A stretch of 64,000 bases of DNA from the sequence record MN850601.1; one strand, given 5' to 3'. This DNA comes from Escherichia phage inny. Positions within the stretch are counted from its first letter, which is position 1, and the number at the start of each line of letters is the position of its first letter. The translations under genes were made by a program, and so were the position numbers. Below are positions 14,076 through 56,782 of the stretch, one piece after another. The notes under the pieces were generated by a model. It did not search any database and had not been told where the DNA came from. It saw only the letters and a program-made list of their open reading frames with translations.

Positions 14076-16037
14076 GTGATTTTAACACGTCCAAATAGTG
14101 CCATTGCAGACATGGTAGAGTCTCGCTATAGAAAGCGTAGAAGTTTTGCAAGTGGTTTTACCTTAAGAGATGCTCGTGAAGCATTGCTCTTTGAAACTGA
14201 CGGTAACTACTATCAGTGGAAAGGTTCTCTACCTAAAGTTGTACCTGCTAACTCTACTCCTACATCTACTGGAGGGATTTCAGATACAGCTTGGAAAAAT
14301 GTGGGTAATGCAGATGACATTGCTCAAATAGAATCAGAATTAGATGCTATTGAAGCTGAAATTGAAGATCTTAGAGAATCCATTCCAGAAGCTGGTAAAT
14401 CAGCTTACCAGATTGCCGTAGACAATGGTTTCCAAGGTACTGAGACAGACTGGTTGGCTTCTTTAAAAGGTGATCCAGGTGCTCCATTAAAGCTGCTAGG
14501 GACGCTATCTAATACCAACCAATTACCTACAACTGGAAACAATGCAGGAGATGCATGGATTGTAGGCGAGAATATGTATGCTTGGGATGGTACTGCTTGG
14601 AGAAAAGTAAACTCACAGGGGCCAGAAGGTAAATCAGCTTATCAAGTTTGGCTTGCAGCAGGAAACCAAGGTACAGAACTAGATTATCTTGCTTCAATTA
14701 AAGGTGATAAAGGGGAGCCTGGCCCAGAGGGGCCACAAGGTGTGCCAGGTAACAATGCTAATGGTTTTGATTACCAAGGTGCAGCTAATTCCGTTTCAGA
14801 TCTTCCTTCTGCATCTCCTGGAAACACATCTCAAGCATGGAGTATTGGTACATATCTATACGTGTCAAACGGTGTAGAATGGATCAATATGGGTGCTATA
14901 GTGGGGCCAAAAGGAGATAAAGGCGACAAAGGAGATAAGGGTAACACTGGTGATTCAGCTTATCAAGTCTGGTTAAATGCTGGTAACGTTGGTACTATTG
15001 ACGAATATATTGCCTCTCTGAAAGGAGAAAAAGGTGATAAGGGAGACAAGGGTGATCAAGGTGAGCAGGGTATACAAGGCTTGACGGGGCCAACTGGTGC
15101 AGGGTTGACCATTATTGATATTCTGACTGACACTTCTGAACTACCAGGAACTGGAGAAGATGGTGATGGTTATCTGATCAATAATGAACTTTGGGTTTGG
15201 TTGCAAGGAGCCACACAGTGGACAAATGTTGGTCGTTTAGCTGGTACTCCAATCACTGCAAAAGGACACGTTGCATCTGCAAGTGCACTTCCTCCTACAT
15301 CCAATTACGGTGATGCTTATCTGACGGAAGATACAGGTCATCTTTACATTTACACCTATGATGAACAAACTCAAACTGCTGAATATGTAGATATGGGTAG
15401 TTTGAAAGGTGATAAGGGTGAGAAAGGTGACGCTGGTACTAACGGTACGGATGGCGCAACTTGGATTGTTAAAACAACAGATCCAATCTCTAGGGATGGT
15501 AAACAAGGGGATTATGCCTTTAATATCTCCACTGGCGAGGTGTTCTTAAAAACATCTGCAACTGTCTGGACTTCTCAAGGTACACTACCTAGCATCACAG
15601 ATGCACCTAGTGACGGTAAAATCTATGCTCGTAAAGATGGAGCATGGGAAGAACTCACTAGTTCTGTAGATGGTCAAGATATAGTTCCAACAAAAGTAAC
15701 AACTAATTTTATAGAGGTTACAGCATACACCAACAACTCTGTTACAGGGGACTGGACACCTCCAGGAACACATAACATGAATGTGTTGAATCTTACTGGT
15801 AACTCTACTATAAAAGCATGGCCTGGTGTCGAAGATAGCACAAAACCTAAACCATTCTCTGCAATAGTTTATCTTATCCAAGATGCCACTGGGGGTCGTA
15901 CTGTTACTTTAGACCCATCTTACAAAGTAATTGGTTCTAGTGATATTAATACAGATCCTAACGGAGTAACAATACTACAACTAACATATTGTGGTGTTGG
16001 TGATTACGTGGATGCTATTGTTGCTAAACGCACATAA
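14076..16037 (+). CDS. tail fiber with collagen-like G-X-Y repeats
   Basis: 653 aa, GTG start with AAAAGGAG RBS; runs GDKGDKGDKG and GEKGDKGDKGDQGEQGIQGLTGPTG; threefold repeat of SAYQ(I/V)..(N/D).G.QGTE.D(W/Y)LAS(L/I)KG. Confidence 0.65.
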   Translation: MILTRPNSAIADMVESRYRKRRSFASGFTLRDAREALLFETDGNYYQWKGSLPKVVPANSTPTSTGGISDTAWKNVGNADDIAQIESELDAIEAEIEDLRESIPEAGKSAYQIAVDNGFQGTETDWLASLKGDPGAPLKLLGTLSNTNQLPTTGNNAGDAWIVGENMYAWDGTAWRKVNSQGPEGKSAYQVWLAAGNQGTELDYLASIKGDKGEPGPEGPQGVPGNNANGFDYQGAANSVSDLPSASPGNTSQAWSIGTYLYVSNGVEWINMGAIVGPKGDKGDKGDKGNTGDSAYQVWLNAGNVGTIDEYIASLKGEKGDKGDKGDQGEQGIQGLTGPTGAGLTIIDILTDTSELPGTGEDGDGYLINNELWVWLQGATQWTNVGRLAGTPITAKGHVASASALPPTSNYGDAYLTEDTGHLYIYTYDEQTQTAEYVDMGSLKGDKGEKGDAGTNGTDGATWIVKTTDPISRDGKQGDYAFNISTGEVFLKTSATVWTSQGTLPSITDAPSDGKIYARKDGAWEELTSSVDGQDIVPTKVTTNFIEVTAYTNNSVTGDWTPPGTHNMNVLNLTGNSTIKAWPGVEDSTKPKPFSAIVYLIQDATGGRTVTLDPSYKVIGSSDINTDPNGVTILQLTYCGVGDYVDAIVAKRT

Positions 16038-18931: not shown

Positions 18932-19363
18932 TTAATCAGTGAAAATTACGCTTACATCTTCTTTAGAGAAGAGTTTATGATCTTCACCTTTTGTCTCAAG
19001 AGTTTCATACAGGTTAAGAAGTTCTGAAACATCTTTCTCTACCAGTTTCTTCAATGTTGCAATTTTCTGTTTGCGACTCTTAATACGTTCAGCTACAACC
19101 TTACGCTGGTATCCGGCAGTACGATAACCTGAGAAAGTTACACCAGTGAGACTTGCAGTTACAGGATCGTAGTGACGTTCAATCTGAAACTTATTAAAAG
19201 GTACAGCGTCATCACGAATAATCTTACCGCCATTACTTACCTGACGAAGACCAGTAACTTGTTCCAGTCGTGCCATAGAAATCTTTGGAGACAGACCAGA
19301 GTCCAGGTTCATACCGTTGTTAATCAGTGCTTTCAGGGTGATTTTGCTGTTCAGTGTACTCAT
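18932..19363 (-). CDS. hypothetical protein
   Basis: 143 aa; GGAGG RBS located inside 3' end of upstream MTase gene, 44-nt overlap. Confidence 0.45.
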   Translation of the reverse strand: MSTLNSKITLKALINNGMNLDSGLSPKISMARLEQVTGLRQVSNGGKIIRDDAVPFNKFQIERHYDPVTASLTGVTFSGYRTAGYQRKVVAERIKSRKQKIATLKKLVEKDVSELLNLYETLETKGEDHKLFSKEDVSVIFTD

Positions 19364-20051
19364 TTAGTCGTTCCTCCGCTTGCTTAAAAATATTTACATC
19401 GGCTTCACAGCCTAAGTATTCTCTACCTGTTAAAAGTGCCGCAACTTGTGTTGTTGCACTTCCAGAGAAGAAGTCTAAGACTACATCTCCTTCGTTGGTG
19501 TGTATATTAATAAGGTCACAAAACAAAGTCAAGTGTTTTTGTGTTGGATGAAAACGATCTGCTCCTTGATAGATAGGATACTCAAACACACCCTTATGGT
19601 AGGAAGCATTGAAGGTTGGCTTCGAACCTTTAACACAAACAATAGCCATCTCTTTAGCGTTACTAAGATAGTTAACACCACTGTTGATGGGTACAGGGTT
19701 TGTTTTAATCCATTCGATAGTACGGAACATACGAAAACCAAGCGGTTCAAGGATTTCACGTAGCTCCTGGATCTTCCAGATATCATACCAAACTATGCAA
19801 GTACCACCTTTTCTAAGCACCCTGTAGGCTTCTTTGAATACTTCTTTAAAATAAGGAATATCTACAACATCCCAATCACCGAAGTTGTAAGATACACGGA
19901 ATCTATCCGTATCTTTTCCAGTAGGCTCTCCAGACTGAAAATTTGTGTCACGAGAAATAGCATATGGTGGGTCAGTAAGAATCAAATCTACACTATTGCT
20001 TTCGAGGGTTTGCAGGTAGTTTAATGCAGTGTTGTTTACAAATTCGCTCAT
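19320..20051 (-). CDS. DNA methyltransferase (amino-MTase; N6-adenine or N4-cytosine)
   Basis: N-terminal LILTDPPYAI (DPPY motif IV) and C-terminal VVLDFFSGSATT (FxGxG motif I); no adjacent restriction gene seen. Confidence 0.8.
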   Translation of the reverse strand: MSEFVNNTALNYLQTLESNSVDLILTDPPYAISRDTNFQSGEPTGKDTDRFRVSYNFGDWDVVDIPYFKEVFKEAYRVLRKGGTCIVWYDIWKIQELREILEPLGFRMFRTIEWIKTNPVPINSGVNYLSNAKEMAIVCVKGSKPTFNASYHKGVFEYPIYQGADRFHPTQKHLTLFCDLINIHTNEGDVVLDFFSGSATTQVAALLTGREYLGCEADVNIFKQAEERLNEYTEQQNHPESTD

Positions 20052-22250: not shown

Positions 22251-24830
22251 CTAGTGACAAGACGCCCATGAGTTACCAACATCGTAACCAGCAGTGAGAG
22301 GTACATTAAGATTGTAATACTCACCAGCTTTATTAACAGCGATAGATGCTAATTCTCCAGCACGACTGTAGGCTGTAAACCAACCACCTTTCGGAGATTC
22401 ATGTACGTTAGCCCAAATCTTGCCAGTACGTTTCTCTTCCTCTTCTTTCCAGGCATTAACCTTATCCAAACATTCTTTATCAATTTTCTTTTGTTCTTCT
22501 GGATCATCAACTTGAGTCCAACCTAAAGATTCTTTAGAAAACCATTTAAAATGCACCAGATCACGAGTTACTTCAAGCTGTGCTTCATCGTGATATGCAA
22601 TCATTTGTTGAACGAATGACTTATTTTTCCAGTCATCAACAAAAAAGTCAACAGCTAATCCTTCTTCTTCGATAAGATCGTCGTAGATAACCATTGCTCT
22701 TTTTGCACAAATAACACCACCACTCTGGAACAGAGAGTTAAGTATTGCGTGTGCAGATCGTGTAGGTACTTTTCTACCATCAATACCAAGAATGTATTTC
22801 TTACCTGTTTTAACCCAAAAATCATGCAGACGTTCTTTAAGAAGCGCAAGAGGTTTTGCAGCTTCCCAGAAAGCATCGTATACAAGTTGTCCTGTATACA
22901 TATCACTACCTATAGTTTTTGCTACTTTTGCAGCTTGAGCACCATAAGTAATACCATACTTAACAGATTTAGCAGGGCTTCGTTCAAACTTACGACCAAT
23001 AGTGTCAGAAATACGTCGAGCCATCATTGTATGAACATCATTAGGTTTTTCCAATAATAGAGCATTACAATATTCGTGTGGTTCCTGCTCGTACCGCCAA
23101 CAGTAGTGTGATTCTATTTTTGCCTCAAGAGAATCAAAGTCATAACCAATTTGGAAGTATTTTGGAACTTCTACACCAAATAAGTTACGCATTTCATATC
23201 CGTACAGAGATGTTACACGTGGGATATTTGCTACTAACCTATGTTTCATACGAGACGTAGCTGCATCACACGTTGCAGCAGGGGTTGGTATACGACCATC
23301 AGCCCTTACTGCCGCCAGATAACCTTTATCGTAATCCTCTTCATCTTCTTCCCAATCAGCACCACCACCTAGGATAGAGTTTCTACGATGTTTATACGTA
23401 AGATATTGCACAATCTGCGTAGCATAAGGAAACTTTTCACCCAGTGCTTCCAAGTTAGGACAAATATCTTTCTCTTGCCCTTTTGTAAAGGAAGGGTTAG
23501 TAAGCACTTTAACACCACGACCTTTAGCTTTAGCAATACGATCTCTTAGTTTCCATTCCAAAGTTTCTGGTGTGCACTCCAGATGATCACATCTGTCCTG
23601 GCAGAAGTTAGATGCTAATGTTTGATCAACATAGTCACGAATAGCTTTCTCCATTTGTGCTTCATCTTTCTTAATCTTAGTGCCAGATTTAAGAGTGATA
23701 TCTTTATCTTTATATTCAGATGGACTCCAACCTAAACCAACTAACCAGTTTTTAATATGTGTAGTGTCGTCTAAAGTAGCAGGTACTGTAGGATCACAAA
23801 TAGGTTCTTCTGCTGGAATAGGGAGTTTAAACTCTTTACCTAATGCAAATAGCCACCAACCATCTTCTTTTTGTACAAGTTCACCAGAATGTTTCTCTGC
23901 AAACTTTATCATGTTACTTGAAGGTTCACCATTCTTTTTAAACTGTAGTTTAGGTGGAATGAATGATTTCAAATAACCTTTAGTAGCAGGTTTAGGAGGT
24001 AACACAGGTTCTGCCTCTAAACGACATGCTTCCATTCGAGCATCCAGATCACGAATATTATCTTCTGCTTGTTTCATATTGAAAGCAAAGCCACGGTGCT
24101 CTTGACGTGTAATAATATCAGCTACACGTTGTTCTAAGTTAAAGGGTTCAGACCATTTATTATAATCACCCCACTCTTCCATCAAATAACGGAATACTGC
24201 GGTGTTAGCTTTGTTATCGTAAATACAGTAATACAGCATATCTGCTGCAAATGTTTTAAATCTTTCAGTTTCAGGAATGTTTTTTCTAAAATCAATTTTA
24301 ACATCCCCTCCAGCTTTCTTAGATAACTCTGCCAGACTATGACCACCGAAGCGATCAGGGTTTAGTGTCTTACTTAAGATCATAGTATCACAAATTTCAA
24401 TGTTACTATTACCCCAAGTATTGTACTTAATACTGTAGTTGAGTTTAAAAAATAATTTAATTGCCAGTAAGTCAAAGTTAATGATGTTATGTCCAACTAC
24501 TTTGGTAATTTTATAGTTTGAATTACCTTTAAATTTACCTGTTCCATTTACAAAATCAGGAAAATCTTTAAGAGGGAAATGGGTATATTCTAAATGCTCA
24601 TATTCCTCCAGTCGGTATTCATACTTTCCGTCAGTCTCAACATACGGACGACCATCGAAAAGATATTTATCACCATCATGGAAAGCAATAATCTCTCCAG
24701 TATCATGACTTTCGCACACAATACAGTGCATTGCAAAACTATCTTTTAAACGATATGGACTTGCCAAGTAATCTACACTTTCGTCATTAAGCAAGTTGTT
24801 ACTTTCAATGTCGAAAGTAAAAGCTCCCAT
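22251..24830 (-). CDS. family A DNA polymerase with 3'-5' exonuclease domain
   Basis: 859 aa; exo motif FDIESNNL near N-terminus; polymerase motifs DFDSLEAK, KSVKYGITYG and HDE; AGGAGG RBS. Confidence 0.85.
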   Translation of the reverse strand: MGAFTFDIESNNLLNDESVDYLASPYRLKDSFAMHCIVCESHDTGEIIAFHDGDKYLFDGRPYVETDGKYEYRLEEYEHLEYTHFPLKDFPDFVNGTGKFKGNSNYKITKVVGHNIINFDLLAIKLFFKLNYSIKYNTWGNSNIEICDTMILSKTLNPDRFGGHSLAELSKKAGGDVKIDFRKNIPETERFKTFAADMLYYCIYDNKANTAVFRYLMEEWGDYNKWSEPFNLEQRVADIITRQEHRGFAFNMKQAEDNIRDLDARMEACRLEAEPVLPPKPATKGYLKSFIPPKLQFKKNGEPSSNMIKFAEKHSGELVQKEDGWWLFALGKEFKLPIPAEEPICDPTVPATLDDTTHIKNWLVGLGWSPSEYKDKDITLKSGTKIKKDEAQMEKAIRDYVDQTLASNFCQDRCDHLECTPETLEWKLRDRIAKAKGRGVKVLTNPSFTKGQEKDICPNLEALGEKFPYATQIVQYLTYKHRRNSILGGGADWEEDEEDYDKGYLAAVRADGRIPTPAATCDAATSRMKHRLVANIPRVTSLYGYEMRNLFGVEVPKYFQIGYDFDSLEAKIESHYCWRYEQEPHEYCNALLLEKPNDVHTMMARRISDTIGRKFERSPAKSVKYGITYGAQAAKVAKTIGSDMYTGQLVYDAFWEAAKPLALLKERLHDFWVKTGKKYILGIDGRKVPTRSAHAILNSLFQSGGVICAKRAMVIYDDLIEEEGLAVDFFVDDWKNKSFVQQMIAYHDEAQLEVTRDLVHFKWFSKESLGWTQVDDPEEQKKIDKECLDKVNAWKEEEEKRTGKIWANVHESPKGGWFTAYSRAGELASIAVNKAGEYYNLNVPLTAGYDVGNSWASCH

Positions 24831-25326: not shown

Positions 25327-27099
25327 TTAATAAGAACCAGCAGAAATATTTTCTGGGTTACTTGTGTATTGATCGTAATCGTGAAGTGTAGCTGTTTTAA
25401 TCTCATAAAAGAAACTACCTGCTGCACCAGTCTCTGAAAACTCACGGTTCTTTAGAATGTAGCAATATGTGCGGTTACGTTCCATAGGATCTTCAGCTTG
25501 TTTATCACGCTCCAGCGCAATTGTGATACCAGCACCTTTAGCAAGGAAGCTACTACCCATTGCATCATCTTCTACAATATGTTCATTACTATTGTTAGAA
25601 GACTTTTTAACGTGTGAAATTACAACAATGGTTATTGCGTACTCTTTCATAATGCGTTTCAGCCACGTCGCAAGTTCCTCTTGTTGTGACACGTCCATAC
25701 CAGAAAGCAAGTCAGAATAAGGGTCGATAACAAGAATGGTTACTCCGAAATAAATAATCATTTCCAGAACCTTCTCTTTAATCACATCTACGTTAGCTCC
25801 ACGATCATCACAAACATAGAAACGTGGTGTTCCATCTTCTCGTTCGTAAAAATCACGAATCTTTTCTTCATTATCTTTTAAAATCTTTTCCTTCTCTTCT
25901 TTCGTTTTACGGTGAAGAGGGATATGCAAGAATGAAGACAGTAAGTTACGAGAATACTTCTTATACGTTGCCTCCAAAGATAAAATACCAAGAGTATGTT
26001 CTGGGTGTGCAAGAATAATGTGTTTCGTAATCTCGTTAACCAACAGTGTCTTACCGATACTTGTTTTTGCAAGTATAACAGTAATTTCTTCTTCTACCAA
26101 GCCTCCACCTAACATATTTGAAGCAACACGCATGAATGGAGGAAGGGTGATCATTTTAGCTTCCAGGCATTCCAAGGCTGCTTCATACAGTACGTTAGAA
26201 GCGTAAACACCAGCAGGTGTGTACAGTTTAGCTTTGAAAAAGCGATCAATAAAATGATCAATTTTTCCTTCTACTAGTGCCTGGTTAGGATCTTTAACAT
26301 CAGTTAGTTCCATCACGTAAACTTTATTACGTGGTAAGATTTTAACACATTTCTCAACTGCTGCACGTCCAGCTTCATCATTATCCATACATAGAACAAT
26401 CTTTTTAAATTGGTCTAAGAATTTATAACGATGTTGAAGCTGCTTATGCAGAGATGTTTCGCCACAAGTACCAGATACTACAGCAGGAACAGGATATTTA
26501 CCACCCTTGTTATAATCTTTTAGCATCTGTGTTGCAGCCAGCATATCGTGTTCACCACCAACGATTAGAATAGTACCGCTGTGGTTACGATATTTAAACT
26601 CCCCAAAAAGATCACAATCCTTTCCTGTTTCACCGATAGGATGTGAGAAATCTTTTGGATCGATACGTTGTTTATACCCAGCAATATTGTAATCTTTAGT
26701 TGTAGGGTATAGTGTTGAAATTACTTCGCCAGTAGCTTCATCGTACATATAACGTACACCGAAAGGCTTAGAGATATCTTCACGAATACCGCGATAACCT
26801 TTTGGATTAGTTCCAGTGCTGGCTTTTAGTTTATCATGTACTTCTGGATTAAACTCACTACCCAAGATATCCTCCTCTTCAATTTCTTCGCCGTGTGCAT
26901 TTAACCATTTTTGATCAGGGATAGTAAAGCCACAAGAAAAACAATGTGCGCCTCGATGGTCTTCATCGGCATCTAAGCCATATACCATCAAATTGTTTTG
27001 TGATCGATCACGCCCTCCTTTCATACAACGAGGACACCCAGTATGTCCTTCTTGACTCAGATCAATGTTATACCCATATTTATTTACAACATAAGACAC
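25327..27099 (-). CDS. bifunctional primase-helicase (T7 gp4-like)
   Basis: 590 aa; N-terminal zinc-binding CPRC...CFSCGF; central TOPRIM-like region; C-terminal helicase with Walker A ILAKTSIGKT and Walker B ILVIDPYSD. Confidence 0.75.
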   Translation of the reverse strand: MSYVVNKYGYNIDLSQEGHTGCPRCMKGGRDRSQNNLMVYGLDADEDHRGAHCFSCGFTIPDQKWLNAHGEEIEEEDILGSEFNPEVHDKLKASTGTNPKGYRGIREDISKPFGVRYMYDEATGEVISTLYPTTKDYNIAGYKQRIDPKDFSHPIGETGKDCDLFGEFKYRNHSGTILIVGGEHDMLAATQMLKDYNKGGKYPVPAVVSGTCGETSLHKQLQHRYKFLDQFKKIVLCMDNDEAGRAAVEKCVKILPRNKVYVMELTDVKDPNQALVEGKIDHFIDRFFKAKLYTPAGVYASNVLYEAALECLEAKMITLPPFMRVASNMLGGGLVEEEITVILAKTSIGKTLLVNEITKHIILAHPEHTLGILSLEATYKKYSRNLLSSFLHIPLHRKTKEEKEKILKDNEEKIRDFYEREDGTPRFYVCDDRGANVDVIKEKVLEMIIYFGVTILVIDPYSDLLSGMDVSQQEELATWLKRIMKEYAITIVVISHVKKSSNNSNEHIVEDDAMGSSFLAKGAGITIALERDKQAEDPMERNRTYCYILKNREFSETGAAGSFFYEIKTATLHDYDQYTSNPENISAGSY

Positions 27100-27111
27100 A
27101 GGATTCTCCTA

Positions 27112-27381
27112 CTAAAATGATTCGTTTGTCTCCATAATATATTGCATTTCCAAATCTTCCATATGTTTCTTAAATTGGTAAACAATTTCCGATGGGGAAA
27201 TATCTATATCAAAAAGTTCTTTTGTACCAGAATAAAATCTAATACCATCAACAATAAGACCACCATAATAATCCCAATCACTTTCTCGTGAGAAAGGGTT
27301 AGGTTCTTCATAATAGTAATCTACTTCAACAATAATAGGTTCTTTATTATCTTGTTTATACTCAAAATCAAAAGTGTTCAT
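27112..27381 (-). CDS. hypothetical protein
   Basis: 89 aa; TAATG stop/start coupling with upstream glycosyltransferase gene. Confidence 0.4.
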   Translation of the reverse strand: MNTFDFEYKQDNKEPIIVEVDYYYEEPNPFSRESDWDYYGGLIVDGIRFYSGTKELFDIDISPSEIVYQFKKHMEDLEMQYIMETNESF

Positions 27382-28325
27382 TATAAATCCTCGATAAGCA
27401 GTCTGCGGGTTTCATTTAAATCATCAATATTGTAGTTATCTCTTACATACTTAGCAAGAGCCAATCCCTTCTCAATACAAACATCAGGAGATTCGATTAA
27501 GTATTCTACAATATCTTTCCACTCTTTAACTGAATCAGCAAAGAAGATTAGATCTTTAAATTCTTCAGTATAATAGTTCTCTCGTGGTGAACAAACGAGT
27601 GGCAAACCTTTAGCACCAGCTTCAAGAATTTTTAAATTACTTTTGGCATTATTAAAATGATTATTTACTAATGGAGCTATGGAGATTTGATGACCATCGT
27701 ATGCTTCCATATAACACTCATAAGGACGAATACCTTCATAAACACAATCTGGTTGAATATCTTCTTTAATTTGCAACCATTGAGCACTACTTAACTCTTC
27801 GTGATCTCTACGAAATCCACATAAAGTTAAATCTTTACCAAAACCAGGAAGAATTGCTAAATCATGTTTATGTGTTTCACTTCCCGCCCAAACTAGTGGA
27901 CTTTTAGAATAACGGTCTTTCGTAAGAACAAACTGTCCTTCATCAAAAGGTAATCCGTTAGGCACAATATGTACATTATCATTGTATTGGCTTAATTCAA
28001 CCTTTAATGCCGGAGTTGTTGTAGTTACAAGATCGCTTCTTTCAAGGAACCATTTTAGGTCATCTCGGATTTGATTTTCAAATAGTCCTTCAAGCATATG
28101 CCCTTCAGGAATAATTAAAGAATCATCCAGATCCATTACCAATTTAAACCCAAGTTGTTTAAGAGCCAGGAAACCTGGCTTTCCACGTGTTGGTACTCCA
28201 TTGAACACAAAAATATTATGCTTAGGATTAATTGTCAGTTTGCGTTTATATGGCAAAATGATTCTATGAAAATCACATATACTATACTTTTCATTTCCGC
28301 GTGTGTCAAGAATAATATTAGGCAT
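27381..28325 (-). CDS. glycosyltransferase, GT-B fold (GT1/GT4-like)
   Basis: 314 aa; C-terminal NAKSNLKILEAGAKGLPLVCS resembles GT4 E-x7-E region; AAGGAG RBS. Confidence 0.6.
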   Translation of the reverse strand: MPNIILDTRGNEKYSICDFHRIILPYKRKLTINPKHNIFVFNGVPTRGKPGFLALKQLGFKLVMDLDDSLIIPEGHMLEGLFENQIRDDLKWFLERSDLVTTTTPALKVELSQYNDNVHIVPNGLPFDEGQFVLTKDRYSKSPLVWAGSETHKHDLAILPGFGKDLTLCGFRRDHEELSSAQWLQIKEDIQPDCVYEGIRPYECYMEAYDGHQISIAPLVNNHFNNAKSNLKILEAGAKGLPLVCSPRENYYTEEFKDLIFFADSVKEWKDIVEYLIESPDVCIEKGLALAKYVRDNYNIDDLNETRRLLIEDL

Positions 28326-28336
28326 ATATCTCCTTG

Positions 28337-29311
28337 TTAAAGACTTTCAATAACTTGACGACGCAGTTCATTGGCATCTGCAAGATTATAATTAAGACGA
28401 ACGTGTTCTGCAAGCATCATACCACGATCTTCTGTGTATCTAGGGTTCCTCATTAGCTTGACAACTTCATAATGCCAAGATGCTTTAGAGTCTGCATAGA
28501 TAACAGCCTTTGCATCTACCGGATTGAAGTACGGCAGCACAGGAGAACAGATAATAGGAAGACCCTTTGCACCTGCTTCCAAAATCTTCAAATTGCTTTT
28601 ACAGTTGTTGAAGTCATTATCTACCAGGGGAGCAATTGCAATACTGTGACCGTCATACACAGACATATACTCACCTAAATTTTTAATAGCTGGTTTATAC
28701 TGTGCATTTGGAATCTTACGTTTTATTTTAACCCACTCCGCAGTAGTTAGATACTGACTATTATTTCCAACAGGTGCAGAAGGATACACTTCATACCCTG
28801 CAATTGTCAATAGTGTATCATCAAATGTATTAGCTACAAGAGATAAATCAGGTTCGTGGCTTGCTCCTCCAGCCCAGATAATAGGCGTGTCAGAATTACG
28901 GTCTTTTGTCAAAGTAAATTGACCTTCGTCGTAAGGTAGTGCGTTTCTAATAACGACAACATTACGATTTAAATGACGAATTTTGTAAGCTAGGTATTCT
29001 GTTGTTACAGTAACAACATCTGCTAACTTGACCATCTCTACAATAGTCTTTGAGTGATTAGTAAATACGCCAGCCATATAATGTTCAGGATTAAGTGAAT
29101 AAAAATCATCTAAATCAACAATAATCTTAACACCTTGTGCCTTCAGGCGTTTAACCTCGTCTGCTCCACGAGAATACACTCTATTAAAAACTAAAACGTC
29201 TTTCTTAGGTTTAAACGTATTTCCAGCAAATGGCATTACAATACGATGGTAATCACAACCACTGCCTAACTTATTATCACACTTAAGTACAGGAGTATTA
29301 GGATTTACCAT
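28337..29311 (-). CDS. glycosyltransferase, GT-B fold, paralog of 27381..28325 (start set at internal ATG 29311)
   Basis: Colinear similarity to neighbour including CKSNLKILEAGAKGLPIICS; N-terminus aligns from MVNPNTPV; GAGGAGG RBS. Confidence 0.6.
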   Translation of the reverse strand: MVNPNTPVLKCDNKLGSGCDYHRIVMPFAGNTFKPKKDVLVFNRVYSRGADEVKRLKAQGVKIIVDLDDFYSLNPEHYMAGVFTNHSKTIVEMVKLADVVTVTTEYLAYKIRHLNRNVVVIRNALPYDEGQFTLTKDRNSDTPIIWAGGASHEPDLSLVANTFDDTLLTIAGYEVYPSAPVGNNSQYLTTAEWVKIKRKIPNAQYKPAIKNLGEYMSVYDGHSIAIAPLVDNDFNNCKSNLKILEAGAKGLPIICSPVLPYFNPVDAKAVIYADSKASWHYEVVKLMRNPRYTEDRGMMLAEHVRLNYNLADANELRRQVIESL

Positions 29312-29984
29312 ATTTTTGAGCCTCCTCATAAGAGATAAAAGTTTTACCATTGCGAAGATCCTCCAGTGATTGTTTATATTGTTCCCAGTTTACACCAATC
29401 CCCTGTTCTTTCTCTTCTTTTGACAGATTCGCAAAAGGTAAAGGATTATCTCCAAATACATCATCAGGATGGATAAACGCCATAATTCGAATAGGACATG
29501 GCACGCCTTGAATACCTCGGTTCAAACCTGCCAGTGGAACGCGATGAATCCACTCTGCATCTTCATATCCATAACCGTGGGTGTATGAGCGGAAATAGCC
29601 AGCTTTCTCAATAACTGCACGGGAATACATACCAAACTGGCACATACCTAGTTCCCAAATAACCACTTCCCCTTCAATACCTTTTACTTTATCTTTAAAG
29701 TATTCAGGCATACCAAAGAAATCCCAACCATTTTCCTTCGCCTGTTTTACAAAATATGTTTCCCAACCTTGAACAACAGGATAGCAATCATCATCAAAAA
29801 TAAACCAGTAATCATACCCTTCATCATAAAACTTTTTCATCAGTTCATTACGAGCATATGCAACACCTTTTCGTTCACGATCATACTGTACAACAAAAGT
29901 AGCATTAGGATCAGTCACAAGATAATCTTTAAGAGGACGCTTACCTACAGTAATAACACCAACACCAATTTTTGTATTTTCCAA
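29298..29984 (-). CDS. glycosyltransferase, GT-A fold (family 2-like)
   Basis: 228 aa; VGVITVGKR...DYWFIFDDDCYP with DxD-type acidic motif; TTG start after AAGGAG. Confidence 0.55.
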   Translation of the reverse strand: MENTKIGVGVITVGKRPLKDYLVTDPNATFVVQYDRERKGVAYARNELMKKFYDEGYDYWFIFDDDCYPVVQGWETYFVKQAKENGWDFFGMPEYFKDKVKGIEGEVVIWELGMCQFGMYSRAVIEKAGYFRSYTHGYGYEDAEWIHRVPLAGLNRGIQGVPCPIRIMAFIHPDDVFGDNPLPFANLSKEEKEQGIGVNWEQYKQSLEDLRNGKTFISYEEAQKYGKS

Positions 29985-29993
29985 AATAACTCC

Positions 29994-30557
29994 TTAAATA
30001 ATTTTATTCATGTCTTGACAATGTAAAAGGTGTGAAACAGCTTTTCTAGGATCATCATTACCTAAACGGTAGGTGTGAAATAAATATAACCCACGTAATA
30101 AACCTAGCCTTTTGTTGTTAGCATGTAATGCTTTAGAGAAAATTATATCAAACTGTATTGACCTTTCCTCAAAAGGGATTTCATTCCACAGACTCTTACG
30201 AAAGAGAAGAAAGAATCCTGCTAAGATAGCATCTGTAGGTACTTCCTCTATTGAGTTTCCCCATTCTAGATGTGCTCTTTTTGCAATCTCAATGTGGTGT
30301 AATATATTCGGATCTTCACTTCTTTCATTATTAAATAATTGATATGTTGATCCCAATCTGTTACAAGATGCACCAAGAACATCAAAATCAGGATTTGAAC
30401 GGACAATTGATTCCAGCCAAGCAGGTTGTTCTGGAAGAAGAAACATTGTATCAATGTCTCTTAGGCAAATCCAACTATCTTCTGGTAAGACACTTATTGT
30501 GTCATTGATACCTTTTCCAATATCTCCAGAAAGATAGGGAGTTATGTGAAATATCAT
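29994..30557 (-). CDS. putative glycosyltransferase-like protein (GT-A-like N-terminus)
   Basis: 187 aa; N-terminal GDIGKGINDTISVLPEDSWICLRDIDTMF resembles GT-A nucleotide-sugar binding start. Confidence 0.35.
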   Translation of the reverse strand: MIFHITPYLSGDIGKGINDTISVLPEDSWICLRDIDTMFLLPEQPAWLESIVRSNPDFDVLGASCNRLGSTYQLFNNERSEDPNILHHIEIAKRAHLEWGNSIEEVPTDAILAGFFLLFRKSLWNEIPFEERSIQFDIIFSKALHANNKRLGLLRGLYLFHTYRLGNDDPRKAVSHLLHCQDMNKII

Positions 30558-30614
30558 ACTCCCTCCGTATTATTACTTTAGCATTTTTAGACTAAAAAGT
30601 CCAAATGGTTTTAC

Positions 30615-30809
30615 CTATTGATTACGTTTTGCGAGTTCCATTTGGATAGCTAAACTGTGATCTCGTGCTTCCATATACTCTTTATATGTTTCATTAAGAT
30701 GATCACAACAAACATCACGCAGTTTAATCAGTTTATCTGTAGGGATACCACTAAGATCATCCCAAGATTTTACAACTTCACCAGTATCATTGATCCCAAT
30801 GGTTTTCAT
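30615..30809 (-). CDS. hypothetical protein
   Basis: 64 aa; AAGGAGG RBS. Confidence 0.35.
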   Translation of the reverse strand: MKTIGINDTGEVVKSWDDLSGIPTDKLIKLRDVCCDHLNETYKEYMEARDHSLAIQMELAKRNQ

Positions 30810-31017
30810 CTACAACCTCCTTAATTGCTACAGCACAGTTTTTGCAGATACACTGCCCTTTACCTTTAGAAATCTGAATGTAAGGTTCATTTTCATTTTC
30901 GCCCTTACGTGAGTCATATATTACAGTATTGAAGCACACAACGCAAATATTTTTTAAGATTGTATACTTATCAACTTTCTTTTTTGTTTTAAAGTTAACT
31001 TCAATAACATCAGCCAT
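30787..31017 (-). CDS. small Cys-rich zinc-ribbon-like protein (start at internal ATG)
   Basis: CVVCFNTV ... CICKNC paired CxxC motifs; TGATG stop/start overlap with upstream gene. Confidence 0.35.
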   Translation of the reverse strand: MADVIEVNFKTKKKVDKYTILKNICVVCFNTVIYDSRKGENENEPYIQISKGKGQCICKNCAVAIKEVVDENHWDQ

Positions 31018-31305: not shown

Positions 31306-31815
31306 TTAGCGATAAAATTGATGTTCTTTGTAGCGGTACACTAGAACCATATCTTTTTCCCAGTGTGCTCTTATTGTAGATTTTTTAAAGTATAATGCTC
31401 CTTTTGTAATATCTAATGCAATTCGTAATTCTGGAAAATGCGTATCGAGATAAAGTAGACGTTCTGCTATAGCCTTAGCTTCCTTCCACTTATCACGTTC
31501 CATAACGTTGAATGTCTTTGTGTAAGAGAATTGTCCTTTTTGAAACAAAACTTCTTTTATAGTATCAGGGAAATATGAATCTCTAGCCCTATTCAATACT
31601 ACATTACCAACAGCAGACATACCGCGCTTTCCTTGATTACGACTTTCTGCATAGATTGCACAAGCTAATAGATTTTCTTTACTATCACGCTTTGTACACT
31701 TGTGAACTACTTTAGCAGTTTTTACGTTTGCAGCTTCGGCTTGCGCCACAACAGGTGTAAATGTAAAAGCAGTTAAGGATAGTAACGCAATTGCGACAAA
31801 GGTTTTTATTGACAA
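31306..31815 (-). CDS. secreted cell-wall hydrolase, SleB/Hydrolase_2 family
   Basis: TTG start after AGGAGG; signal peptide ending VVAQA; core CAIYAESRNQGKRGMSAVGNVVLNRARDSYFPDTIKEVLFQKGQFSY. Confidence 0.65.
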   Translation of the reverse strand: MSIKTFVAIALLSLTAFTFTPVVAQAEAANVKTAKVVHKCTKRDSKENLLACAIYAESRNQGKRGMSAVGNVVLNRARDSYFPDTIKEVLFQKGQFSYTKTFNVMERDKWKEAKAIAERLLYLDTHFPELRIALDITKGALYFKKSTIRAHWEKDMVLVYRYKEHQFYR

Positions 31816-37332: not shown

Positions 37333-37923
37333 TTAACGACGACGTGAGCTACTAAAACTACGTTTCGACGAAGAATAACTTTTCGAAGACTTACTATAAG
37401 AGCTAATAGGGCTTGAGTAAGACTTACGAGCAGAGTAATCACTATTCACTTTTGTTGTTGACGGGCGTGAATACGTTTGTACACTTTGCTGCTTAATTGT
37501 GTTTTGTTTAGTGGTTGTATATTTATTTCCTTGTTTATCATAAAAACTATGCTTTTGTGTTGTATATGCTTTACTGTTAGTTGTAGGAGCAGCGTTGTTA
37601 TTAATAATTGTTGTACTGCTACCACCATCTCTATAACCGCCACCGCCACTATTACCACTCAACATATGACCAAGAAGCATACCTGTAGCAAACTCACCTA
37701 CACCAGAAGAACCACTGCCGCCTCCTTGCACAACAACTGTTGAAGGTTGTGCAGGTGCTGCTTGAACAACTTGAGGTGCAGGTTGATTTACATATTGTTC
37801 ATCTACCATCTGATTTGGTGTTTGTTGGTAACGTTGATTTTGTACATTTTCAGAATCATCACAACCTACCAGCAATGCACTACCTAATACAACTGCAACA
37901 ATAAAAGATTTAATGTTTTTCAT
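37333..37923 (-). CDS. lipoprotein with glycine-zipper segment (start at second ATG)
   Basis: Signal peptide with lipobox LLVGC; Gly-rich GGGSGSSGVGEFATGMLLGHMLSGNSGGGG; Ser/Gln-rich tail. Confidence 0.5.
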   Translation of the reverse strand: MKNIKSFIVAVVLGSALLVGCDDSENVQNQRYQQTPNQMVDEQYVNQPAPQVVQAAPAQPSTVVVQGGGSGSSGVGEFATGMLLGHMLSGNSGGGGYRDGGSSTTIINNNAAPTTNSKAYTTQKHSFYDKQGNKYTTTKQNTIKQQSVQTYSRPSTTKVNSDYSARKSYSSPISSYSKSSKSYSSSKRSFSSSRRR

Positions 37924-38116
37924 TTGTAACCCTCTCATTTAAAGTCTCAACACAATTTTTAAAATCCCTAGAGAAACAATACATCTGTTCTCCGTTCCTG
38001 TTGATAGTAATTGTATGGTTATCAATATATGTTGTCAAGATAAAAATCAAACAAAACAACCCTAGAGCAAAACAAATATTTTCAAACAGAATCCAAAGAA
38101 CACGTAAAACCACCAT
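37910..38116 (-). CDS. small hydrophobic protein
   Basis: 68 aa with one hydrophobic helix. Confidence 0.3.
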   Translation of the reverse strand: MVVLRVLWILFENICFALGLFCLIFILTTYIDNHTITINRNGEQMYCFSRDFKNCVETLNERVTNEKH

Positions 38117-48095: not shown

Positions 48096-49832
48096 TTAGT
48101 TTACCAGTTTATTTATATCTGGTAAAAGATTTATTTCACCTAAAAAATCACCTTCACCTTCCTCTAACCAACTCTCATATGCTTGTGCATGATTATAGTT
48201 ACCATCAAAAGAATCTGCAACAAATTTTTCTACAGCTTTTCGAGATGTGCCAGTGCCAAATACACCAAGTTTAATACCATTGATCGGTAAAGTGGTGCTT
48301 GTTGGTACTTTCTCTGTTGCAACACGGTTAATATCTATAATCTCCTGTACGGTTGTGTTCCATTGTAAGCATTTAACACAACGGGTATGCGCTACATACA
48401 GTAGGTTTCGCTCTGCCTCTTCCAGTCCTATCCATTGACCAGTCTTTTTATCATAGTTGGAAGGAAAATCATTAGCAACAATAACCTGATCCCACTCCAA
48501 ACCTTTAGACTTGTGTGCTGTAGTCAGTGTGACTTTTGCTGTAGGAGAATTTCTATGCGTTCTAAGTGTATGTGCTATAGTGTTTGCCTTACCAGAAACT
48601 ACGATGTTTAACAAGCGTTTAGCATCTGGATCAGCCTCTGCACACTCAACAAATTCATTCCAGTCTGCGTAAGGTAATACAGTTTCATGTTTTACTTTCT
48701 CAATATCTCCTCTCCGAAGAGCATTAACACTATCTACCATAGAGATAAAATCCCTGGTATCTACGTTAATAATAATTTCTTCCCCATCTGCAATACGATC
48801 CATTGCCTCCATAAGCAAGGTTAAATTCTTGCGAAAGATGATAGTGTAAGGTTTTGTATAGTCTACAACATCTGATTTGTAGCTACCTACTACAGTATCA
48901 AAGCCTTTACCAACCAAAGGATGACGCAAAGGTTCTTTATCGCTTAAAATCATATTGGCAATGTTTGCCACTTTGGGGCCAAAACGGAAGCAAGCAGTTA
49001 ATGGAAGCTCTGCCCCATATGTAGAGGTTTCCTTCATCATATTTTGGCTTCCACGGAACTGGTAGATGCTCTGATATTCGTCACCCACCACTACTACTTG
49101 TTTTGCAGATTTAGCATTTCGCAGAATAGACAAGAATGCAGGGTTAACATCCTGAAATTCATCACCAAAAATAATATCATAACCAAGATCAGCACCAGAT
49201 AATTCAAACAATTTTACATAGGTATCATGCGTCATCAAAGTATCTGTATTAGGATCGATGCGCTCTCGCCACAATTGTTTTGCATACTTAACTACTTCTG
49301 TAATTAGTTTGTGTTCGTTAATACCTTTTCTTTTAATATCTGCAAGATGTACACTAGGAAAATGTTTACGGCTGATAAAAGGATCATCCGAAAATTCAAA
49401 CTTACCTACGGTTTGCTTGATCATTAAACCAATCATAGCACGAGTTAAAAGTGTTTTCCCTCGTTTATCAATAAGATTATTAATCTTAAATTTCTTTGCT
49501 ATCTCACTACCTGTACCTGCAACGTTAACATACTGTCCTTCTGGTCGTGACAGTTTTGCACGTAAACGATGATCCAGGAATTGATAGCAAATAGAATGCA
49601 ATGTACGGCATTCTACATTTAGTGGCATCTTACGTCGTGCTTCTTCTGCCATGCTTTTATTGAAAGCTAAGTAAAGAATGCGATCTTCTGTACTGTTAGC
49701 CAGCAAATAAAGTGTTGACGTTTTGCCTGATCCAGATTTAGCTTGGATAGTTAAAAAGCGATGGTCTGGAAAAGCCTCCTTAATAGCTGTTTGCTCTTCT
49801 GTTGGAGTGAAGCTCAACTCTTTCTTAGCCAT
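48096..49832 (-). CDS. UvrD/Rep-type SF1 DNA helicase (start at ATG with AGAGAGG RBS)
   Basis: Walker A QAKSGSGKTSTL and motif II IIFGDEFQD. Confidence 0.8.
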   Translation of the reverse strand: MAKKELSFTPTEEQTAIKEAFPDHRFLTIQAKSGSGKTSTLYLLANSTEDRILYLAFNKSMAEEARRKMPLNVECRTLHSICYQFLDHRLRAKLSRPEGQYVNVAGTGSEIAKKFKINNLIDKRGKTLLTRAMIGLMIKQTVGKFEFSDDPFISRKHFPSVHLADIKRKGINEHKLITEVVKYAKQLWRERIDPNTDTLMTHDTYVKLFELSGADLGYDIIFGDEFQDVNPAFLSILRNAKSAKQVVVVGDEYQSIYQFRGSQNMMKETSTYGAELPLTACFRFGPKVANIANMILSDKEPLRHPLVGKGFDTVVGSYKSDVVDYTKPYTIIFRKNLTLLMEAMDRIADGEEIIINVDTRDFISMVDSVNALRRGDIEKVKHETVLPYADWNEFVECAEADPDAKRLLNIVVSGKANTIAHTLRTHRNSPTAKVTLTTAHKSKGLEWDQVIVANDFPSNYDKKTGQWIGLEEAERNLLYVAHTRCVKCLQWNTTVQEIIDINRVATEKVPTSTTLPINGIKLGVFGTGTSRKAVEKFVADSFDGNYNHAQAYESWLEEGEGDFLGEINLLPDINKLVN

Positions 49833-56549: not shown

Positions 56550-56586
56550 TAGAATAATCTCCTTATAAATCACGCTTAATGCGCTA

Positions 56587-56769: not shown

Positions 56770-56782
56770 AGTTTTCTCCTTA

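Follow-up and report, generated by a model that had tools for sequence, protein, structure and literature searches.

Phage and bacterial glycosylation systems related to the locus

In the mycobacteriophage Corndog, an O-methyltransferase gene and glycosyltransferase (GT) genes lie between those for portal and protease (PMC4351075), and Corndog gp38 as well as Che8 gp110 were reported to be essential for capsid glycosylation (PMC12363180). Phage GTs may also act on DNA, as in the glucosylation of 5-hydroxymethylcytosine (5-hmC) in T4, and the T-even system is defined by a ThyA-family hydroxymethylase or 5hoC synthase. In bacteria, a typical O-antigen locus combines an rml operon with several GT-B enzymes of the GT4-like fold and GT2-like GT-A enzymes, and the Gtr systems, by which temperate phages convert the serotype, are bound to the membrane. 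The RB69-type system, which forms arabinosyl-5hoC, includes a phage-encoded sugar-nucleotide pathway too (PMC13326640). For the phages related to the one described below, Olsen et al. (2020) speculated on the rhamnosylation of hydroxymethylated nucleotides (PMC7552041).

A cluster of four glycosyltransferase genes in Escherichia phage inny

The window, i.e., the whole stretch of 64,000 nucleotides analyzed here (sequence record MN850601.1), comes from a Justusliebigvirus, a phi92-like E. coli myophage. The original prediction had placed four consecutive GT genes at 27381-30557, between the primase-helicase gene and the lysis/Ter region; four consecutive minus-strand ORFs are located at these positions and their neighbors agree with that description. 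The cluster genes, listed in transcription order with GT4 as the first, and other genes of the window referred to in the text are the following:

29994-30557, minus strand: GT4, minimal GT-A-fold glycosyltransferase, 187 aa (phi92 gp166; PHROG 14179)
29298-29984, minus strand: GT3, GT-A enzyme with a DDD (DXD-type) motif, 228 aa (phi92 gp165; PHROG 2456)
28337-29311, minus strand: GT2, GT-B enzyme, paralog of GT1, 324 aa (phi92 gp164; PHROG 7162)
27381-28325, minus strand: GT1, GT-B enzyme with a GT4-like fold, 314 aa (phi92 gp163; PHROG 7162)
25327-27099: primase-helicase, neighbor of the cluster
31306-31815: cell-wall hydrolase, neighbor of the cluster
from 32564: TerD/vWA, neighbor of the cluster
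19320-20051: N6/N4 DNA methyltransferase, a base-modifying enzyme inside the window

GT4 and GT3 are separated by 9 nt, GT3 and GT2 overlap by 14 nt, GT2 and GT1 are 11 nt apart and the cluster overlaps the next gene by 1 nt. Each of the four genes is preceded by a Shine-Dalgarno sequence, and no terminator-like sites were found within the cluster. This arrangement agrees with the tight coupling proposed initially, and GT1-GT4 are confirmed as real, translationally coupled minus-strand genes. GT3 starts with a TTG codon (RBS AAGGAG). The start of GT2 at 29311 is preceded by the RBS GAGGAGG and agrees with the phi92 annotation; an in-frame upstream ATG at 29350 would extend the product to 337 aa. 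In line with the cytoplasmic location that had been deduced for the enzymes, no signal peptides or transmembrane (TM) segments were detected in GT1-GT4 (maximal 19-residue Kyte-Doolittle mean ≤1.21), and the proteins are soluble and mostly acidic (three of the four).

The genes themselves were known before, as they correspond to gp163-166 of phi92, whose record names glycosyltransferase folds in an annotation that dates from 2012. The cluster is 98-99% identical across 55 Justusliebigvirus records and ~69% identical across ~70 Phapecoctavirus records; in the large-myovirus relatives, as in the window, it adjoins the genes for primase-helicase and DNA polymerase, not head genes. The window also encodes a collagen-like tail fiber.

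Folds and conserved motifs of the four enzymes

The enzyme types assigned originally, two GT-B paralogs, one GT-A enzyme with a DDD motif and one GT-A-like protein, were all recovered. GT1 and GT2 (41% identity, E 2e-81) contain two Rossmann-like domains, with a fold similar to that of GT4-family enzymes. GT1 scored 26.9 bits on the Pfam family Glyco_trans_1_2 (cut-off 25), and the scores of GT2 on Glyco_trans_1_4 and Glyco_trans_1_2 (14.4-17.9 bits) were under the cut-offs. The complete C-terminal E-x7-E motif was not found in this GT-B family: of its two Glu residues, the second (E235) alone is invariant, Ala227 stands in place of the first as read from the GT1 sequence, and K228-S229 and K232 are invariant instead. 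Sucrose-phosphate synthase, BshA, TreT and GlgM, whose acceptors are small and soluble, are among the best fold neighbors of GT1. Its fold neighbors also include enzymes with lipid-linked acceptors (PglH/WlaC, PglA, PimA, WbnH, WaaG and WaaB) and TarM. The charge of the N-domains was considered as a proxy for membrane association and dropped, as the pI values of 6.4 (GT1) and 8.8 (GT2) were uninformative.

GT3 has a GT-A fold in which D64-D65-D66 and Y138-G139-x-E141-D142 (YGxED) are invariant among 18 homologs. Members of this set matched the Pfam families TAGT (16 of 18), Glycos_transf_2 (11 of 18) and Glyco_transf_7C (10 of 18), mostly under the curated cut-offs. For GT4, a fold search of BFVD returned a Cellulophaga homolog as the sole close match. 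No meaningful match was obtained when the PDB was searched by sequence with GT1, GT3, GT4 or the GT3 profile, and the NCBIfam search gave no matches.

The dTDP-rhamnose pathway

In PaulScherrer, a 98%-identical relative, all four proteins RmlABCD gave strong Pfam matches, evidencing a complete dTDP-rhamnose pathway. The rml genes of this phage are located at 119.2-122.5 kb, a region outside the window, and in the relatives they lie ~70 kb from the GT cluster. In the phage collection, the number of records with RmlC equals that of records with the GT cluster in Escherichia phages (105 each) and is close to it in Klebsiella phages (8 vs 9), a co-distribution that is confounded by shared ancestry. 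One phage, ESCO37, is missing rmlA and rmlB and has kept all four GTs. RmlABCD is the likely sugar-donor pathway of the cluster.

A three-family module in unrelated phages

What is new here is the observation that GT4, GT3 and the GT-B enzyme constitute a conserved, rearranging module in many unrelated viral contigs, also present in a Paraburkholderia prophage. The order 4-3-B(-B) is found in Stephanstirmvirinae and in the loci L037/L058, L070, L028/L051 and L105, the order 3-B-4 in L032, L060, L062-65, L067, L068, L071 and L106, and the pairs 3-B, B-3 or B-4 in other loci. That the adjacency of the three families is kept despite reordering is a classical signature of one pathway.

The trio occurs in phages from many metagenomes, the viral contigs being about 17-60 kb long, in prophage-like loci of Paraburkholderia and Devosia assemblies and in Cellulophaga phages. 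The three families comprise 18, 47 and 57 clusters among 5.8 billion proteins, almost none of them named, and the 185,579 species genomes searched contained no more than 7 loci. The families are essentially phage-only, and relatives in bacterial polysaccharide loci are nearly absent; the clustering with lipopolysaccharide (LPS) or teichoic-acid GT families that had been named among the grounds for refuting the original prediction was not observed at the family level. One bacterial GT-B homolog adjoins the gene of an inverse-autotransporter adhesin, a hint that acceptors could, in general, be proteins.

The genomic context of the module in these phages often differs from that in the window. In the HK97-like contigs L060, L062, L068 and L071, the genes for portal, prohead protease and major capsid protein are followed by GT3-GTB-GT4 and a head completion protein, and in the Paraburkholderia prophage the genes for protease, capsid, portal and a collagen-repeat protein precede GT4-GT3-GTB, with those for an HK97 gp10-like protein and the tail tube after it. 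An HK97-type gene for capsid, portal or protease was present within flanks of up to 6 kb in 19 of the 34 non-redundant loci of the GT4 gene family, a proximity that is weak evidence alone because flanks of 6 kb in a phage of 40 kb would reach a head gene by chance from ~40% of positions. The module begins less than 700 bp from the major capsid gene in nine loci, several of the capsid-adjacent loci coming from one phage group. The loci that carry the trio inside or beside head genes include L060, L062, L068, L071 and L105. Accessory genes commonly insert at head-module boundaries. The closest neighbors of the GT4-family loci encode further GTs, sugar O-methyltransferases or head proteins, and no replication or nucleotide-metabolism families were found among the top 25 neighbor families. 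A sugar O-methyltransferase of the TylF/Methyltransf_24 type adjoins the GT4 homologs in Cellulophaga phage phi18:2 and in L007. A link with the neighboring Ter-family genes was among the options considered; in small phages the trio is present without Ter genes.

Comparison with the mycobacteriophage loci

The cluster shares several features with Che8 gp108-110 and Corndog gp35-38, loci in which soluble phage GTs are also clustered. In Corndog the GT genes are inside the head-gene block, like the trio of many small phages but not that of the window, and Corndog gp35 and the C-terminal half of Che8 gp108 represent the TylF/Methyltransf_24 sugar O-methyltransferase that distant loci with GT4 homologs also encode. 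In addition, GT3 is homologous to the GT-A domain at the N-terminus of Moonbeam gp104 (hhalign probability 99.2%), whose gene occupies the position of Che8 gp108 in the cluster-F glycosylation locus. GT3 gave matches in mycobacteriophages, but an orthology with the experimentally implicated enzymes of Che8 (gp108-110) and Corndog (gp36-38) was rejected, as Moonbeam gp104, a different cluster-F allele, is the only one that matches: BLASTP against Che8 gp108-110 gave no match at E<1, and hhalign of the GT families against the Che8 and Corndog enzymes gave a probability below 2% in all nine pairs. The mycobacteriophage loci use a GT25-like enzyme that is absent from the GT1-GT4 cluster, whereas GT-B enzymes, present in the cluster, were not detected in them. 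Moreover, the phage described here has a Gram-negative host, and its GT genes lie by replication genes, without an O-methyltransferase and paired with a dTDP-rhamnose pathway. From these sequence comparisons, the likeness to mycobacteriophage virion glycosylation would be one of analogy, not homology. The resemblance to the fibril glycosylation of Mimivirus, which belongs to another virus realm and has a different host, is generic and restricted to the GT-A level.

Possible acceptors of the glycan

It can be tentatively hypothesized that virion proteins receive a glycan with rhamnose from the module. The four genes would encode a soluble, cytoplasmic, multi-step glycosylation pathway, the conserved, phage-specific core of which is formed by a minimal GT-A enzyme (GT4), a DDD GT-A enzyme (GT3) and a GT-B enzyme of the GT4-like fold, duplicated as GT1/GT2. 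These enzymes would most likely act sequentially on one acceptor to produce a short oligosaccharide by up to four transfers, using host UDP-sugars and, presumably, dTDP-L-rhamnose supplied by the phage RmlABCD. The most likely acceptor would be at least one virion structural protein, the capsid being the first candidate, and the outcome a glycan coat analogous to that of mycobacteriophages Che8 and Corndog. Virion proteins were among the targets considered in the original prediction, and this option gains contextual support from the placement of the same trio in head modules of other phages; DNA bases, also proposed then, are disfavored. The position of the cluster next to replication genes in this phage speaks against a virion acceptor. 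In PaulScherrer, terminal extensions rich in Ser/Thr are absent from the major capsid, decoration and tail-tube proteins, and the S/N-rich C-terminus of its sheath, the only such terminus among capsid, decoration, tube and sheath, was not convincing as an acceptor site. Collagen-like proteins were considered as acceptors because they are encoded near the module in L105 and in the Cellulophaga phage and because of the collagen-like tail fiber of the window, but were set aside, the L105 repeats containing no Ser/Thr. The literature searched contained no functional study of the GT genes in phi92, Justusliebigvirus or Phapecoctavirus and no report of glycosylated virions in any phi92-like phage.

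Alternatively, the enzymes could glycosylate (e.g., rhamnosylate) modified bases of the phage DNA, in the manner of T4 5-hmC glucosylation. Such a function would be consistent with the speculation of Olsen et al. and with the location of the cluster beside replication genes. In T-even phages, GT-B enzymes are likewise near DNA-metabolism genes; however, the ThyA-family hydroxymethylase or 5hoC synthase that defines the T-even system was found neither in the window nor among the scanned proteins of PaulScherrer, whose thymidylate synthase is of the ThyX type (PF02511), with no PDB ThyA match. The domain scan (E≤0.01) covered 34 unassigned proteins of at least 130 aa encoded in the region 38-137 kb of that phage and detected no TET/JBP, 2OG oxygenase or ThyA domain. 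The search for a hydroxymethylase elsewhere in the genome, suggested at the outset and run in this relative, was negative within this scope, and the statement that the window lacks base-modifying enzymes holds for hydroxymethylases but not for other types, given the N6/N4 methyltransferase. A Dcm-like C5 cytosine methyltransferase encoded in relatives could in principle feed a TET route, and GT3, like the family members mentioned above, matches TAGT (PF20691) weakly over the DXD region; yet the score of GT3 (24.1 bits) is under the curated cut-off of 27.5, and the alignment, limited to profile positions 37-100 of 205, does not extend beyond the generic part that binds nucleotide sugars. In its fold, the GT-B enzyme is as close to other GT4 enzymes as to the T4 glucosyltransferases or closer, T4 AGT, T4 BGT and the HY126 DNA arabinosyltransferase ranking 18th, 29th and 38th, respectively, among the fold neighbors of GT1. 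The acidic character of most of the enzymes and the presence of the trio on small viral contigs, with no nucleotide-metabolism family among the top 25 neighbor families, argue in the same direction. Furthermore, phi92-like phages were reported to show an exceptional susceptibility to restriction of types I, II and III (PMC8594841), although a sequence-specific DNA modification would give no protection from the restriction enzymes tested. Overall, DNA glycosylation by GT1-GT4 is unlikely, a glycosylation of modified bases on the T4 pattern being very improbable.

A function in the host envelope has somewhat more in its favor but is still quite improbable. It would imply that the GTs and the phage dTDP-rhamnose assemble or modify a lipid-linked glycan at the cytoplasmic membrane face (an O-antigen-like unit, ECA, NGR glycan or LPS core), blocking superinfection or preventing progeny from sticking to debris. 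The combination of rml with GT4-like GT-B and GT2-like GT-A enzymes is typical of O-antigen loci, the fold neighbors of GT1 include TarM as well as WaaG, WbnH, PglH and the other enzymes with lipid-linked acceptors named above, and phi92-like phages recognize surface glycans (PMC8594841, PMC11990801). Unlike the O-antigen and LPS clusters with rmlBDAC and the phage Gtr systems, the GT genes are here distant from rml, belong to phage-specific sequence families and lack a flippase, polymerase, bactoprenol-linked component, membrane-embedded GT or other Gtr-type partner, and the N-domains are not strongly basic. In addition, this phage is strictly lytic, and the late head operon in which small or temperate phages carry the trio, silent in lysogens, is the wrong place for surface conversion, which argues against lysogenic conversion. 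Unlikely, but less so, is an acceptor of another kind, i.e., a non-structural host or phage protein, RNA or a small molecule, with a role in anti-defense, in takeover or in the synthesis of a rhamnosylated metabolite, the head placement being incidental. The location of these soluble enzymes among early/middle replication genes, the small-molecule enzymes among the best fold neighbors of GT1, the many host-takeover genes of the phage (sirtuin, macrodomain protein, NAD salvage and Ter-family genes) and the adhesin-linked bacterial homolog would fit such a role. It leaves unexplained, however, the frequent placement of the trio between capsid and head-completion genes and its co-occurrence with TylF-type O-methyltransferases, as in proven virion-glycosylation loci, and no specific acceptor candidate emerged.

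Concluding remarks

Returning to the virion proteins as acceptors, the trio may represent, with a little more reserve than for the glycan itself, a previously unrecognized phage-specific virion-glycosylation module that has no sequence relationship to the enzymes of mycobacteriophages and decorates phi92-like and phAPEC8-like particles with a rhamnose glycan. These phages have host ranges among the broadest of coliphages and are encountered repeatedly in collections for therapy and biocontrol, and the virion glycan coat of mycobacteriophages alters antibody binding and neutralization. If confirmed, these virions would be the first with a glycan coat in E. coli phages, and the antibody recognition of broad-host-range therapy candidates, their pharmacology and the choice of phages would be affected. 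The analysis also speaks against the standing speculation of DNA rhamnosylation in these phages, and the portable three-enzyme module, often located beside capsid genes, provides a testable handle on uncharacterized phage GT families.

Identity of the window and organization of the cluster

Over 27000-31000 the window shares 99.4% identity with Escherichia phage AV123 and 98-99% with phi92, alia, PaulScherrer (Bas60) and some 50 further Justusliebigvirus genomes; these identities place the sequence among the phi92-like E. coli myophages (subfamily Stephanstirmvirinae). As proposed in the original prediction, four consecutive glycosyltransferase genes, all on the minus strand, fill the interval 27381-30557, and their neighbours agree with a placement between the primase-helicase gene and the lysis/Ter region. 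The cluster is a real feature that had been annotated before and is not new. Negative GC skew from about 18 to 56 kb is in agreement with minus-strand transcription of this block.

Glycosyltransferase cluster and neighbouring genes
29994-30557, minus strand: GT4, minimal GT-A enzyme, 187 aa, ATG start
29298-29984, minus strand: GT3, GT-A enzyme with a DDD motif, 228 aa, TTG start
28337-29311, minus strand: GT2, GT-B enzyme, 324 aa, starting at an internal ATG as annotated in phi92, with a GAGGAGG ribosome-binding site
27381-28325, minus strand: GT1, GT-B enzyme, 314 aa
25327-27099: primase-helicase
22251-24830, minus strand: DNA polymerase, 859 aa
31306-31815: SleB-like cell-wall hydrolase
from 32564: TerD/vWA proteins

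Given the phi92 annotation and the GAGGAGG site, a longer GT2 reading frame reaching 29350 is probably not used. Spacings in the cluster are +9, -14, +11 and -1 nt, a Shine-Dalgarno sequence precedes each of the four genes, and no terminator-like hairpin was found inside the cluster, the nearest on the minus strand being at 32554-32539.

Each of the four proteins aligns over its whole length with a PHROG 'glycosyltransferase' family. At 41% identity (E 2e-81) GT1 and GT2 are paralogues, the former scoring above and the latter below the Pfam Glyco_trans_1_2 threshold; GT3 and GT4 share no sequence relationship. Residues 64-66 (DDD) and 138-142 (YGxED) of GT3 are invariant in 18 homologues, which as a family show weak matches to TAGT (16/18 members), Glycos_transf_2 (11/18) and Glyco_transf_7C (10/18). 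Neither a signal peptide nor a hydrophobic segment was found in any of the four enzymes, whose pI values are 5.2, 8.2, 5.2 and 5.6. Identity, motifs and sequence scan thus bear out the predicted set of two GT-B paralogues, a DDD-containing GT-A enzyme and a GT-A-like protein, all devoid of signal peptides. In the phi92 GenBank record the corresponding products (gp163-166) are labelled 'trehalose-synthase TreT fold', 'GT-B fold', 'polypeptide GalNAc-transferase 2 fold' and 'glycosyl-transferase fold', and the literature searched contained no paper reporting a function for these phi92-like genes.

Other features of the window and its relatives

The DNA polymerase gene (22251-24830, minus strand) is free of the 735-nt intein carried by the PaulScherrer and phi92 polymerases, and the intein of the PaulScherrer UvrD/Rep helicase is likewise missing; in the alignment both absences show up as breaks, at window positions 23100 and 49043-49076. 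An insertion of about 1.3 kb (55447-56771), not present in PaulScherrer, encodes a 386-aa protein (55446-56606, minus strand) that has two HTH_36 domains and resembles MUG113/T5orf172 at its C-terminus; the gene may be mobile or regulatory. Within the Ter/TelA-like gene block, a predicted lipoprotein (37333-37938, minus strand; signal peptide ending LLVGC) has a long low-complexity tail rich in Ser/Thr/Tyr/Lys (...SYSSPISSYSKSSKSYSSSKRSFSSSRRR). Five 'Campylobacter phage' records with C. jejuni as host (A145, A150, B15, C3 and one more; MG065639, MG065645, MG065650, MG065656 and one more) match Justusliebigvirus or Phapecoctavirus coliphages: A150 and C3 share about 98% DNA identity with the cluster, the GT4 protein of A145 is 99.5% identical, and B15 shows Phapecoctavirus-level identity (GT4 66%). 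The host attribution looks doubtful.

A conserved module of three enzyme families

Each enzyme has few homologues, with 18, 47 and 57 clusters in a set of 5.8 billion proteins, and nearly all are unnamed and metagenomic; non-exhaustive pattern scans of IMG/VR recovered 23 GT3-family and 65 GT4-family loci. Mapping all four proteins onto the recovered loci by tblastn revealed that the three families remain neighbours although gene order varies.

Gene orders of the module (4, GT4; 3, GT3; B, GT-B)
4-3-B-B: Justusliebigvirus, Phapecoctavirus and related large contigs
4-3-B, single GT-B: L008, Klebsiella phage 05F01, L037/L058, L070, L028/L051
3-B-4: L032, L060, L062-65, L067, L068, L071
3-B, B-3 and B-4 pairs: other loci
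4-B-B, GT3 missing: some close relatives, L041-44

From this distribution it follows that the ancestral unit held each family once, with GT-B duplicated in the lineage of the window. Adjacency that persists while the order shifts is standard evidence that the GT4, GT3 and GT-B products act in one pathway. The new finding is a portable module of two GT-A families and one GT-B family, conserved though rearranging, and associated with capsid genes.

Genomic position of the module in other phages

Four HK97-like contigs, each from a different metagenome, place GT3-GTB-GT4 after the portal, prohead protease and major capsid genes, in this order, and ahead of the head completion gene. A search of 185,579 species genomes gave only seven hits, one of them in Paraburkholderia sp. 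J67; there a prophage has protease, capsid, portal and a collagen-repeat protein ahead of GT4-GT3-GTB, with an HK97 gp10-like protein and the tail tube behind it. In Cellulophaga phage phi18:2 the C-terminal half of gp39 is a GT4 domain, with portal/minor-capsid genes on one side and protease/capsid on the other, adjoining a Methyltransf_24 protein. The latter, gp38 (L005, 6868-7335), is annotated as 'DNA methylase' but matches Pfam Methyltransf_24, the family of the sugar O-methyltransferase Corndog gp35 and of Che8 gp108 in its C-terminal half; a role as sugar O-methyltransferase, partnering gp39, is more likely. At locus L007 the GT4 homologue stands between the terminase and portal genes, accompanied by a family GT2 glycosyltransferase, a polysaccharide deacetylase, UDP-galactopyranose mutase and two genes of the Methyltransf_24 family, and in L010 terminase genes directly follow a GT3-GTB pair.

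For 34 distant loci of the GT4 family, made non-redundant, the two closest ORFs to either side were surveyed (132 ORFs in all); they comprised methyltransferases, other glycosyltransferases (family GT2, 11; 7C, 8; TOD1/MUCI70, 7; GT-D, 4; GT-B, 4) and head genes (head completion, 7; capsid, 4; connector, 4; TerL, 3), with no replication or nucleotide-metabolism family in the top 25. HK97-type capsid, portal or protease genes (home-made HMMs) occurred in the available flanks of 19/34 loci, to be read against chance, by which roughly 40% of positions in a phage of 40 kb would have a head gene within a flank of 6 kb. The first glycosyltransferase hit starts within 700 bp of the capsid gene end in nine loci, several of the capsid-adjacent loci belonging to one phage group, and head-module boundaries are common landing sites for accessory genes. 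GT3-only loci were more often found near terminase, NinG, Q antiterminator and lysis genes.

A metagenomic phage contig (L012, 10001-17873) has a glycosylation island adjoining replication genes, with two GT-B, one family GT2 enzyme, an NDP-sugar epimerase/dehydratase, a radical-SAM/SPASM enzyme, a DegT aminotransferase and two other genes, whose product would be an unusual amino- or deoxy-sugar. In Burkholderia dolosa contig JAIMDN010000082.1 (L009, 3025-8440) the only named bacterial GT-B homologue (P0110, 411 aa, 35% identity) directly follows the genes for an inverse-autotransporter/invasin-like adhesin (IAT_beta, Invasin_D3) and a 571-aa protein, a setting that suggests a protein-glycosylating role there.

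Sugar donor

PaulScherrer encodes RmlB, RmlA, RmlC and RmlD at 119.2-122.5 kb, all with strong Pfam matches, about 70 kb away from the cluster and beyond the window. In the phage collection 167 records have RmlC and 141 have GT4; among enterobacterial phages the two sets nearly coincide (105 Escherichia each, 8 versus 9 Klebsiella), with identical Justusliebigvirus and Phapecoctavirus entries. This agreement fits rhamnose as one donor, the co-distribution being confounded by common descent. The intermediate dTDP-4-keto-6-deoxyglucose is made by E. coli itself, which makes it plausible that a phage keeps its glycosyltransferases when rmlA and rmlB are lost. Such is the case of phage ESCO37, in which both genes are missing (PMC10269720) and all four glycosyltransferase genes are retained.

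Candidate acceptors

A complete dTDP-rhamnose pathway was described in phi92-like and phAPEC8-like phages, with the speculation that hydroxymethylated nucleotides are rhamnosylated (Olsen et al., 2020; PMC7552041), and DNA bases were also among the targets considered in the original prediction. The characterised pyrimidine glycosylations all begin at a hydroxylated base, produced by a ThyA homologue or a TET/JBP oxygenase (PMC13326640). In PaulScherrer (97.5-98.6% identical over the blocks aligned to the window), the sole thymidylate synthase is ThyX-type (Pfam Thy1), with no ThyA match in PDB, and a Pfam scan of its 34 unassigned proteins of at least 130 aa found no ThyA, TET_JBP or 2OG-oxygenase domain. 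The TAGT match of GT3 is below threshold and confined to about a third of the profile, the generic part that binds nucleotide sugars, and among GT1 fold neighbours the T4 alpha- and beta-glucosyltransferases rank 18th and 29th and the HY126 DNA arabinosyltransferase 38th. Vequintavirinae and phi92-like phages were moreover reported as 'exceptionally susceptible' to restriction-modification 'despite ... a putative dTDP glycosylation machinery' (Maffei et al., 2021; PMC8594841). Altogether, this evidence makes bulk glycosylation of phage DNA unlikely. A rare, sequence-specific modification is formally possible; the genes of relatives include Dam-like, Dcm-like and additional methyltransferases. 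The window itself contains a 243-aa N6/N4 DNA methyltransferase (19320-20051, minus strand; DPPY motif; Pfam N6_N4_Mtase E 2e-30), the Dam-like enzyme of the PaulScherrer annotation, which had been overlooked when the window was described as having no visible base-modifying enzyme, a statement that was inexact to this extent. With no hydroxylated-base-forming enzyme detected in the PaulScherrer domain scan and no nucleotide-metabolism families seen adjoining the module in smaller contigs, DNA is a very improbable acceptor.

Remodelling of host envelope glycans is improbable as well, the late head-operon position of the module in a prophage speaking against this role and against lysogenic conversion, and another cytoplasmic acceptor (protein, RNA or metabolite) seems rather unlikely. 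The reading tentatively preferred is that GT1-GT4 would glycosylate virion proteins, where we infer acceptor, donors and order of action alike. The closest functional precedent, by analogy, would be mycobacteriophage virion glycosylation: in Corndog an O-methyltransferase and three glycosyltransferase genes sit between portal and protease (PMC4351075), Che8 gp110 and Corndog gp38 were reported essential for capsid glycosylation (PMC12363180), and the modification shields virions against antibodies (PMC12363180, PMC11256854). The TylF/Methyltransf_24 sugar O-methyltransferase of these loci is of the family found beside GT4 homologues in the Cellulophaga phage and L007, and GT3 is homologous to the GT-A domain of cluster-F Moonbeam gp104 (hhalign probability 99.2%), which occupies the Che8 gp108 position. 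Conversely, Che8 gp108-110 and Corndog gp36-38 have no detectable relationship to any of GT1-GT4, and the GT25-like enzyme of those systems is absent from the cluster; membership in the Che8/Corndog system was therefore rejected, and the tentative proposal is that the cluster works like a virion-glycosylation system without belonging to that one.

Against virion glycosylation, the cluster of the window lies in the replication block, outside the head block, and no obvious Ser/Thr-rich acceptor tail was found in the PaulScherrer capsid, decoration and tube proteins. When the sheath is included, it has the only Ser-rich terminus: the PaulScherrer tail sheath (L103, 10170-11576, outside the window) has an S/N-rich C-terminus (...TNRTANSQNSNSSTVSS), possible but unsupported as a glycosylation site. 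The lateral tail-fibre protein of the window (14076-16037, plus strand) has several short collagen-like G-X-Y runs (GDKGDKGDKG..., GEQGIQGLTGPTG); a collagen-repeat protein also lies beside the trio in the Paraburkholderia prophage (L105, 4583-6325), its repeats containing no Ser/Thr, and near it in phi18:2 (gp50). Such collagen-like proteins were considered as conceivable acceptors. Recognition of the module turns virion glycosylation in these coliphages into a concrete hypothesis that is easy to test.
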